IMG/VR virus record: IMGVR_UViG_2049941000_000050
DNA from: an uncultured virus (IMG/VR IMGVR_UViG_2049941000_000050)
Lineage: Duplodnaviria > Heunggongvirae > Uroviricota > Caudoviricetes
DNA: 2,144 nt
Direction: 5' to 3' (one strand)
The notes beneath the pieces are model-generated. The model was given only the letters and a program-made list of their open reading frames with translations. It did no database searches and was not told the DNA's origin. A program made the translations under genes and the position numbers. Below, piece after piece: positions 1 to 2,144 of this stretch (its first letter is position 1; every line of letters starts with the position of its first letter).

Positions 1-348
1 GGCGCAGGCGAAATCCCCGGAATCGAAATAAAAGTTCACGTTGGTGTTCGGCACAATCCCATACCTGTCCAGCTGGAGGAGGTCGTCCTGTACTTCCATA
101 TACGAAATCATTTCCGCCGAAACGGAGTAGTCCGGGTTCTGCTCGTAGCCGTAAGCCTGTCTCAGGACGGCGTTTTGGTCGATTACTGGCTTGAACTCCT
201 CGAAATACGGAACCTTGAGCTTAAAATAATTGACGTCGATGCCGTAGGAACGTATTATATCTCTATAATAATTCCCAATAATTTTCGATTCCCGCTCCAA
301 ATTCTTCATGTAGCGGATTTCTCTGTTGTTTTTCTGATACAACGCCAT
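1..348 (-). CDS. N-terminal 116 codons of a putative phage neck/head-closure protein (T4 gp14-like), variant A; runs off the window start
   Basis: Not in the ORF track because it has no stop in the window. Manual translation from ATG 348-346 (in-frame TAA upstream at 360-358): MALYQKNNREIRYMKNLERESKIIGNYYRDIIRSYGIDVNYFKLKVPYFEEFKPVIDQNAVLRQAYGYEQNPDYSVSAEMISYMEVQDDLLQLDRYGIVPNTNVNFYFDSGDFACA. The motif order (DIIRSYGIDVNY, AYG, ISYME, YGIVPNTNVNFYF) resembles the gp14 family as I recall it (I..G.d..Y / fG / a.Y / FG....d.v.l.i). The last 37 codons match 2034-2144. An alternative start is ATG 309. Confidence 0.75.
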   Translation of the reverse strand, partial: MALYQKNNREIRYMKNLERESKIIGNYYRDIIRSYGIDVNYFKLKVPYFEEFKPVIDQNAVLRQAYGYEQNPDYSVSAEMISYMEVQDDLLQLDRYGIVPNTNVNFYFDSGDFACA

Positions 349-966: not shown

Positions 967-1004
967 AAAAAAAGAGAGACCGGAGACGGTCTCTCTTTTT
1001 TTTT
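967..1004. terminator. Bidirectional rho-independent terminator
   Basis: A7 (967-973), stem GAGAGACCG (974-982), GAGA GNRA-type tetraloop (983-986), stem CGGTCTCTC (987-995), T9 (996-1004). The 9-bp stem is perfect and has U-tracts on both strands. It begins 15 nt after the lipoprotein stop. Confidence 0.93.
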
Positions 1005-1035: not shown

Positions 1036-1389
1036 TTCGACGTAGTCCTTGCTGGCGTATTTTCTCTTGAAGGAATTCGCCGTGAAGACGTTTGTCGGAA
1101 GCTCGAGCCTAACGTCATCGTGCTCGAACGCCAGGCACGGAAGAACGTATTCCTTTTCCAGCTCGTAGGAGGAGATGACGGCGGCAAAGCGTCCGGTCAG
1201 GATTTCCGATTCGAACGTCAGCGGGGTGTTGTACCCCAGGGTGTAAGGGAAATACTCGTCGGAAAGGTTGTGGCAGACCGTTTTTCCCCCGATTTCGGAC
1301 GAAACTACGTCCGAAACGCAATCGGGAACTTCAAATTCGAAAACCGTCTCCTTTACCTTATATTCTTTCAGCTGTCCCAGCTTCCAGGC
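1036..1389 (-). CDS. Internal 118-codon fragment of the same gp14-like gene, variant A (AWKLGQLKEY...ASKDYVE)
   Basis: Aligns without gaps to 1677-2030 (offset 641) with 12 mismatches in 354 nt. The frame is open throughout and is bounded by N gaps on both sides. Confidence 0.8.
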
Positions 1390-1399: not shown

Positions 1400-1400
1400 A

Positions 1401-2144
1401 CTTCCAGACGTACTTGTGGAGTAGCGGGTTTATCCCGTCATTTGAGATTATCTTGTCGGTGCTCTCGGTTATCTCGTACCTCTGCCTCGACCCGTCGGAG
1501 GGGAACCCAATCGTGACGATGTCTCCCACCTCGGGGTGTATCTTGTCCAGATATTTCCCGATTTTGTTCAGGTCGCGGAACAGAACCCCGCCGAAAAGCT
1601 TCCCCCGCAGAATGTTTTTGTACTGGTTTTTGCGAATATGGACCCTGTGGACGGCGAATTTCAGGAAAAGCATCGTCTCGACGTAGTCCTTGCTGGCGTA
1701 TTTTCTCTTGAAGGAATTCGCCGTGAAGACGTTTGTCGGGAGCTCGAGCCTAACGTCGTCGTGCTCGAACGCCAGGCACGGAAGAACGTATTCCTTTTCC
1801 AGCTCGTAGGAGGAGATGACGGCGGCAAAGCGTCCGGTCAGAATTTCCGATTCGAACGTCAGCGGGGTGTTGTACCCCAGAGTGTAGGGGAAATACTCGT
1901 CGGAAAGGTTGTGGCAGACCGTTTTCCCCCCGACCTCGGACGAAACAACGTCTGAAACGCAATCGGGAACTTCAAATTCAAAAACCGTCTCCTTTACCTT
2001 ATATTCTTTCAGCTGTCCCAGCTTCCAGGCGAGAGCGCAGGCGAAATCCCCGGAATCGAAATAAAAGTTCACGTTGGTGTTTGGCACAATCCCGTACCTG
2101 TCCAGCTAGAGGAGGTCGTCCTGTACTTCCATATACGAAATCAT
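1401..2144 (-). CDS. Central/C-terminal part of the putative gp14-like neck protein, variant B; partial at both ends, with one in-frame TAG at 2106-2108
   Basis: Corresponds to ORF-track 1368..2087, but homology to 1-111 shows the frame extends to the window edge (MISYMEVQDDLL[TAG]LDRYGIVPNTNVNF...). The C-terminal motifs HPEVGDIVTI...RYEIT...INPLLHKYVWK resemble the gp14-family P.eGDli...fEI...l....w.l pattern. The ORF-track tail 'PGSWDS' is a cross-gap artefact. Confidence 0.75.
1677..2030 (+). repeat. Direct near-duplicate of 1036-1389 (354 nt, 96.6% identical)
   Basis: Mismatches at 1677, 1740, 1758, 1842, 1881, 1887, 1926, 1934, 1935, 1947, 1953 and 1980; no indels. Confidence 0.97.
2034..2144 (+). 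repeat. Direct near-duplicate of 1-111 (111 nt, 4 mismatches)
   Basis: Offset 2033; mismatches at 1/2034, 49/2082, 61/2094 and 75/2108; no indels. Confidence 0.97.

Follow-up and report, generated by a model that had tools for sequence, protein, structure and literature searches.

A CAG/TAG polymorphism in a neck-like gene of a bovine-gut phage and the probable reading of TAG as glutamine in its clade

The DNA analysed here, referred to as the window, is a complete scaffold of 2,144 nt from an uncultured tailed phage and contains two gaps of ten Ns, at positions 1026-1035 and 1390-1399. On the minus strand, the pieces of the scaffold were found to be parts of one open frame, belonging to a gene of about 555 codons that is named neck-like here after its predicted fold. 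Based on the ORFs, the homologues and the fold, the piece at 1-348 (minus strand) is the 5' part of this gene, with 116 codons and the ATG at 348. The piece at 1400-2144 (minus strand), which bears an in-frame TAG, was identified by alignment and from contigs to cover codons ~80 to 327. A middle part of the gene is located at 1036-1389 (minus strand), out of order in the scaffold, and was placed by repeat alignment. A repeat search with alignment revealed 4 differences in 111 nt between 1-111 and 2034-2144, and 12 differences in 354 nt between 1036-1389 and 1677-2030. The pieces at 1-348 and 1036-1389 were assigned to haplotype 1 and the TAG-bearing piece to haplotype 2. The two ends of the window (1-111 and 2034-2144) are 97%-identical variants and could be misread as a terminal repeat or a gene duplication.

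Divergent to the neck-like gene, an ORF of 172 aa is present in the ORF list at 433-951 on the plus strand, coding for a lipoprotein-like product with a signal peptide ending in ...LIVGC. As stated in the original prediction, this is the only complete ORF in the window, and it ends with TAA. Its stop codon is followed by a strong terminator-like hairpin, computed for positions 967-1002 (plus strand), with 16 pairs, an A-run before and a T-run after the stem. Lipoprotein-like ORFs of 172-195 aa were identified at the same place in relatives, divergent beside the neck-like gene, at L018:9171-9701 (minus strand) and L001:9308-9892 (minus strand), showing that the arrangement is conserved.

The in-frame TAG lies at 2106-2108 (minus strand), and the homologous codon of the other variant, at 73-75 (minus strand), is CAG for Gln; the corresponding plus-strand letters are CTA and CTG. 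The further comparison of the two variants given in the original prediction was reproduced codon by codon, with 14 synonymous third-position changes and one ATC/GTC (Ile/Val) exchange among the other 15 differences. When TAG is translated as Gln, the frame 2144-1401 is open over 248 codons, the TAG being codon 13, followed by 235 codons over which the homology continues. This frame, free of decay, had been taken as support for recoding. It is indeed open; however, a recent nonsense mutation would look alike. The piece 2144-1401 contains five Gln sites, one of which is the TAG, and the ORF on the opposite strand contains zero TAGs. The description of the variants as two genes had to be abandoned: they are pieces of two strain haplotypes of one single-copy gene.

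The stretch was found in 12 public metagenome runs from the bovine gut, which belong to 5 studies and of which 4 are derived from one sample. Logan contigs of four runs (X1, X4 and X5 among them) were aligned on 1400-2144, these being contigs and unitigs, not reads. For run X1, both alleles were identified, with paired bubbles along the stretch. Here, a 78-nt unitig with a mean k-mer depth of 4.9 covers 2052-2129 with 0 differences to the window; it contains the A at 2108 linked with 2082T and 2094G and provides contig-level support for this A. The alternative in X1 is an 1886-nt contig at a depth of 11.3, which has 2082C, 2094A and a G at 2108. For the major haplotype, contigs extend 1793-1880 nt past the end of the window (from 2052 and 1981) and carry the letters of the piece 1-111. 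At 1896-2010, the depth of the window form compared to the other form was 4.9 versus 9.46 in X1 and 46.1 versus 71.4 in X4. G-bearing contigs at 2108 were also found in X4 (depth 85.3) and X5 (depth 2.9). X4 is a deeper run from the same sample as X1, and only a G contig was among the records listed for 2108, a result on contig data in which the A allele could be missed. X5 provided the only aligned contig from another study that covers 2108, and its G at a depth of 2.9 does not prove that the A is absent there. The TAG-bearing form is a real minority haplotype of a single locus, with about 30-39% of the depth. The unitig depth of 4.9 for A2108 excludes a single-read error, not a systematic one, and the support is not an independent replication, since X1-X4 may represent the window's own source sample.

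For the three window proteins, the lipoprotein-like one included, no Pfam or PHROG family was identified. Close relatives of the window protein were absent from the viral contig set, from the GenBank phages (tblastn) and from the genome contig set. A metagenome scan revealed one locus, L018, which is the nearest relative with DNA at 61% amino-acid identity; no longer contig of the window's phage was found in these searches. Homologues were identified only in metagenomes (32 of 289 candidates, 77 representatives) as proteins without names. The full-length homologues have about 500-600 aa, and many of the database entries are fragments. From IMG/VR, 17 loci were obtained by an alignment-based scan, and with the one from the metagenome scan (L018), 18 loci of 8.7-21 kb were available.

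In L018 and L001, the homologue is surrounded by genes for an SbcCD-like nuclease, a GroEL-type chaperonin, a peptidase, a helicase, a UvsY-like mediator and a tail sheath. The gene for the GroEL-type chaperonin (PHROG 5725, E values of 3e-129 and 4e-139) adjoins the SbcCD-like genes, at L018:5580-7754 (minus strand) and L001:4902-6578 (minus strand). Directly after the neck-like gene, a highly acidic protein is encoded at L018:11424-12413 (plus strand) and L001:11658-12530 (plus strand); the one of L018 contains KEEPKEEPK-type repeats and one internal TAG. For related contigs of 27-185 kb, a CheckV completeness of 14-69% was obtained, which by simple arithmetic implies a genome size of roughly 180-270 kb.

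The homologue from L018 was modelled with AlphaFold2 from a 39-sequence alignment, with a mean pLDDT of 66.4. Using this model, Foldseek identified nothing at E <= 0.001, the best row being the stopper of phage 812 with an E value of 7e-3 and a probability of 0.92. In a VIA-align search against 48,161 chains, the top 9 were without exception neck or connector chains of phages, with Z scores of 8.0-9.7 and 104-145 aligned residues, matching a model range of about 6-351. Among them were 8vhx_F (Z 9.7), 9lu4_M from T4 gp13/gp14 (Z 9.6, 126 residues) and 8hdr_A (Z 9.0); these scores are close to the range of 7-8 that the tool calls common. On the sequence level, neither the window pieces nor the L018 and L001 homologues were assigned to a neck-protein family in Pfam or PHROG, no meaningful Pfam match was obtained for the 39 aligned members, and a profile search against the PDB sequences gave 0 matches at E <= 1. 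The assignment as a neck gene in the original prediction is therefore supported on the fold level, for the first ~350 residues of the model, and not by a sequence match, so that a neck-protein-like fold of the gene product is plausible. The model resembles T4 gp13/gp14 (9lu4), the neck of phage Chi (8vhx) and the stopper of phage 812 (8qgr, 8q01). It differs from the matched chains in length, with ~555 aa compared to 110-230 aa; about 120 residues align, split by a large insertion, and the C-terminal 200 residues are not accounted for by the matched chains.

The window alone cannot settle which code is used, and the code was tested on the relatives. In the homologous gene, every internal stop codon is a TAG, and the genes run to the conserved C-terminus, ending with TAA or TGA. 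Internal TAGs were identified in 9 of 17 loci: L001 (4), L003 (5), L004 (6), L005 (4), L006 (11), L007 (4, with 2 more at the tail), L008 (7), L011 (2) and L018 (1). The homologous gene of L002, L010 and L012-L016 contains no internal TAG; the single TAG of L009 lies beyond the homology, and L017, the N-terminus of which is missing, was left unscored. In the column of the window's TAG, the 17 loci contain a Gln codon (CAG or CAA) in 5 cases, TAG in 3 (L005, L007 and L008), Glu in 3, Met in 2 and Ala, Val, Ser and Leu in one case each. The homologue of L007 extends for 17 codons past the conserved C-terminus and is then followed by TAG TAG TAA (at about 11660-11719); read as sense codons, the two TAGs would result in a protein ending ...ELKEQQ.

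Across the clade, ORFs bounded only by TAA and TGA were compared in an all-versus-all BLAST, and the best-scoring frame per region was kept (181 of 416 ORFs). This filter was aimed at conserved antisense shadow ORFs, in which TAG was aligned to Tyr or to TAG. In the kept ORFs, TAG was aligned with Gln in 522 of 2363 informative pairs (22%) compared to a Gln background of 2.9%, the pairs not being independent events. The residues opposite TAG were Gln (.218), Lys (.093), Glu (.090) and Asn (.082), with Ser at 6.2%, Leu at 4.1% and Trp at 0.8%, again for pairs that are not independent. Opposite real Gln codons in the same alignments, the values were.25 for Gln,.115 for Glu,.106 for Lys and.071 for Asn. 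Gln was the best-fitting residue for TAG by 0.44 nat per pair, with the same dependence among pairs. An alignment of TAG with Gln in relatives had been proposed as a check of the original prediction; it was found, with a residue profile like the one of true Gln codons. Per locus, the kept ORFs of L003-L008 contain 6-68 internal TAGs; for L018, 3 internal TAGs were counted, and L011 has at least 10. When L001 and L002 were compared, TAG was opposite Gln at 16 of 22 sites; the internal TAGs of L018 were opposite Gln at only 1 of 3 sites in comparison with L001 or L002. The ORF coverage of L003-L008, also proposed as a check, increased clearly, from ~0.60 to 0.91-0.96, when the codes were compared. 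For contigs of 46-55% GC, the ORF coverage is uninformative, since spurious ORFs inflate every code, and the homology counts were used instead.

Two sister long contigs of the window's branch, G001 (83 kb) and G002 (184.6 kb), share 76% amino-acid identity. G001 contains 78 internal TAGs in 52 conserved ORFs with 23,080 aligned codons, opposite Gln in 46 cases, Glu in 9, TAG in 7, Ala, Ser and Asp in 3 each, Gly in 2, a gap in 2 and Asn, His and Arg in one case each. In G002, 44 internal TAGs were identified in 51 conserved ORFs with 22,817 aligned codons, opposite Gln in 15 cases, Glu in 7, TAG in 7, Lys in 3, Leu, Met, Asp, Ala and Ser in 2 each and Ile and Arg in one case each. The Gln-aligned share is 46 of 69 sites for G001 and 15 of 37 for G002. 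Seven sites are TAG in both contigs, which shows that TAG sense codons can be conserved and are not all transient. In none of the 103 conserved ORFs of G001 and G002 was a TAG found where the partner ORF ends; the window itself contributes the TAA of its one complete gene. In the outgroups L009, L010 and L012-L014, TAG is present only at ORF edges, just after the homology ends, like a true stop codon, and possible TAG terminators were seen in the standard-code outgroups L009, L010 and L012.

A maximum-likelihood tree calculated for the protein groups the window with L018 and P0003 as its sisters (SH-aLRT 99), with L001 and L002 as the next relatives (SH-aLRT 99). The window lies inside a TAG-using side of 12 rows (SH-aLRT 95), where every locus with DNA, ten relatives in total, has internal TAGs. 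Since this side of the tree is TAG-using throughout, one change of state with a single origin is sufficient. The window's branch has a GC content of 46-55% and 1-5 TAGs per 1000 codons, as expected from the original prediction of a sparse recoding. Compared to the sister branch, its TAG density is low, at 1.2-3.4 per 1000 codons; the sister branch, with lower GC, has 3.1-11 TAGs per 1000 codons, with the exception of L011 (50% GC, 2.7). In L001, L002 and L018, the strand that carries the neck-like, peptidase and sheath genes has 25 TAGs in 7515 codons, compared to 1 in 8497 codons for the opposite one (Fisher p = 1.5e-7). Both strands contain TAGs in L003, L004, L006-L008 and L011, the strand of GroEL, SbcCD and the helicase included. 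The window fits the strand pattern of its branch: its TAG belongs to the late-strand gene, and the ORF on the opposite strand is free of TAGs; the lipoprotein-like ORF lies on the strand that is practically without TAGs in this branch.

The original prediction had also proposed a suppressor tRNA with a CUA anticodon as a sign of recoding, and a search revealed such a tRNA in one relative, out of 9 partial related viral records searched with Rfam. This single tRNA belongs to G003, the contig of L006, and is located at L019:1500-1574 (plus strand), about 1.5 kb beyond the L006 locus. ARAGORN assigned the anticodon CTA, and the Rfam score was 31.8 bits with a cut-off of 29. The call rests on these two programs; the minimum-free-energy fold gave no cloverleaf (z = -0.05). 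The first base of the tRNA is a U that pairs with A72, base 73 is a G, and the CCA is encoded; these features fit Gln identity. Its nearest annotated phage matches are the tRNA-Trp genes in 14 records of Streptomyces phages, with 80% identity along 70 nt, and its anticodon is one base from CCA. This hints at a putative Trp-derived suppressor, although TAG aligns with Gln. In E. coli, su+7 is a tRNA-Trp turned into an amber suppressor (CUA), which is charged mainly with Gln. By analogy, the Trp-like sequence with a CUA anticodon in G003 may resemble su+7; different from su+7, charging of the G003 tRNA with Gln is putative, and Trp was found at only 0.8% of the TAG-aligned positions.

No tRNAs were detected in the 18 loci of 8.7-21 kb (L001-L018), nor by Rfam and ARAGORN in the whole of G001 and G002, contigs that are 32% and 69% complete. 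ARAGORN at 85% thresholds gave 8 weak candidates in G001 and 29 in G002, which were considered as noise, and the lone 'cta' candidate at G002 105694-105784 was dropped, being inside a conserved ORF of 395 aa. An RF-1/RF-2 domain (PF00472) and a GlnRS-type synthetase (tRNA-synt_1c, PF00749) were found in 0 of 5 partial records, which are 25-69% complete and in which either gene could be missed.

By phylogenetic bracketing, TAG probably means Gln in the window's phage. The code 15 reading of the original prediction for a late structural gene is supported through the relatives; in the window itself, it concerns one codon on a minority haplotype. In the window, pieces of two haplotypes from co-occurring strains were chained together by the scaffolder; the gene would be a late structural one of a large bovine-gut myovirus, and this phage would belong to a clade which reads TAG as Gln, at least in late genes. 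The change from CAG to TAG on the minority haplotype would be a silent C-to-T transition, like 14 of the 15 other differences, and not a nonsense mutation. CAG is present at this site in the other haplotype and in L018, L001 and L002, the three nearest relatives with DNA, and TAG is thus the derived state, which would imply that the lineage continues to gain TAG sense codons. The decoder may be a suppressor tRNA of the phage or of the host, charged by the host GlnRS. The peptide around the site is identical in both haplotypes and would therefore not discriminate between them. Weighing against Gln are the single codon and the single complete gene available in the window for judging terminators, the minority position of the TAG allele, the nearest relative with DNA being only 61% identical, the 1 of 3 Gln-aligned TAG sites of L018, and the two nearest long contigs, in which no tRNA was detected.

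A true amber nonsense allele in a phage using the standard code, with the recoding either lost or never acquired, is considered unlikely. The second haplotype would then be defective and persist at ~30% because the co-infecting major haplotype complements it, or the mutation would be very recent. The allele is a minority one and concerns a single codon, the one contig from another study has G, and G001 and G002, the nearest long relatives, are without a detected suppressor tRNA, all of which would be consistent with a nonsense mutation; if recent, it would leave the downstream frame intact. The original prediction had argued that a nonsense allele in an essential neck gene would be lethal, an argument that is weak, as it holds only if the major haplotype does not complement the variant. 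However, internal TAGs in conserved genes were identified in each of the 10 relatives grouped with the window in the tree, and the lineage would have had to leave this shared code. In addition, the change hits a Gln codon in a column with TAG in three relatives, and the other three differences within the 111-nt overlap leave the protein unchanged, in agreement with purifying selection on this haplotype. As a very improbable explanation, the A at 2108 could be a sequencing or assembly error, the site being 36 nt from the end of a scaffold that is mis-assembled, with concatenated haplotypes and two N gaps. Against such an error stands the unitig of X1, which is exact over 2052-2129 and has the same depth (4.9) as the second haplotype at 1896-2010.

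Partial readthrough of TAG by a suppressor has also been considered, with the sparse late-gene TAGs acting as a throttle or timer and the TAG allele lowering the yield of the neck protein. The sparseness of the TAGs and their restriction to the strand that encodes the sheath, the neck-like protein and the peptidase (25 versus 1) would be in agreement with this, as would the 5 partial records in which no release-factor gene was found that would remove the competition at TAG. A regulation of late genes by recoding is among the proposals of Borges et al. (bioRxiv 10.1101/2021.08.26.457843). On the other side, full reassignment predicts a lack of TAG terminators, as observed for the 103 conserved ORFs of G001 and G002, and we regard partial readthrough as improbable. 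Sequence cannot tell partial readthrough and full reassignment apart, nor measure the efficiency.

With TAG read as Gln, a more specific proposal can be made, which is tentative. The segregating change from CAG to TAG (~30%) may be a code 15 sense TAG caught arising, in a branch of ~50% GC of a recoded jumbo-myovirus clade of single origin, with rare late-strand TAGs and a 69%-complete genome without a tRNA. If true, recoding would be maintained and even expanding at moderate GC without a phage-borne suppressor, which does not fit a model with low GC first and tRNA acquisition after. The decoder would then come from the host, from another phage or from an undetected RNA, and the CAG/TAG polymorphism between co-occurring strains would offer a direct view of recoded codons entering a population.

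Stop codon recoding in gut and rumen phages is already established, and the case described here is not new in kind. Its points of interest are modest: a sparse, strand-limited TAG at ~50% GC, a 185-kb contig on which no tRNA is visible, and a site segregating for CAG and TAG. For gut phages, cattle samples included, recoding of TAG to Gln (code 15) has been described for crAss-like, Lak, Garnet and other phages (bioRxiv 10.1101/2021.08.26.457843), and for crAss-like phages it has been confirmed by metaproteomics (Peters et al., PMC9523058). A survey from 2026 gives alternative codes for 8.75% of rumen jumbo phages, counting as recoded those with a coding density gain of 10%, and describes TAG recoding with CTA-anticodon tRNAs in part of the genomes (PMC13037316). 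Screens of the 10% kind used in that survey would probably miss phages in which each gene has only a few TAG sense codons, and code 15 is therefore probably more widespread than current estimates suggest. Gene callers using code 11 split this gene family, many of the database homologues being pieces.

Compared to the code 15 gut phages as described in the preprint (bioRxiv 10.1101/2021.08.26.457843), the clade of the window shares the Gln-aligned TAGs in conserved genes, their concentration in structural and late genes and the animal gut as habitat. It differs from them as a clade of large myoviruses encoding GroEL, SbcCD and UvsY, which was matched to no named clade, and in the window's branch by ~46-55% GC with only 1-5 TAGs per 1000 codons. 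From the alternatively coded set of the rumen survey (PMC13037316), it is set apart by the 10% coding density gain required there, for which the window's branch is probably too TAG-poor. With the alternatively coded rumen jumbo phages of this survey, it has in common the recoding of TAG, accompanied in some of the genomes by a CTA-anticodon tRNA, the rumen or bovine gut as habitat and an implied genome size of ~180-270 kb.
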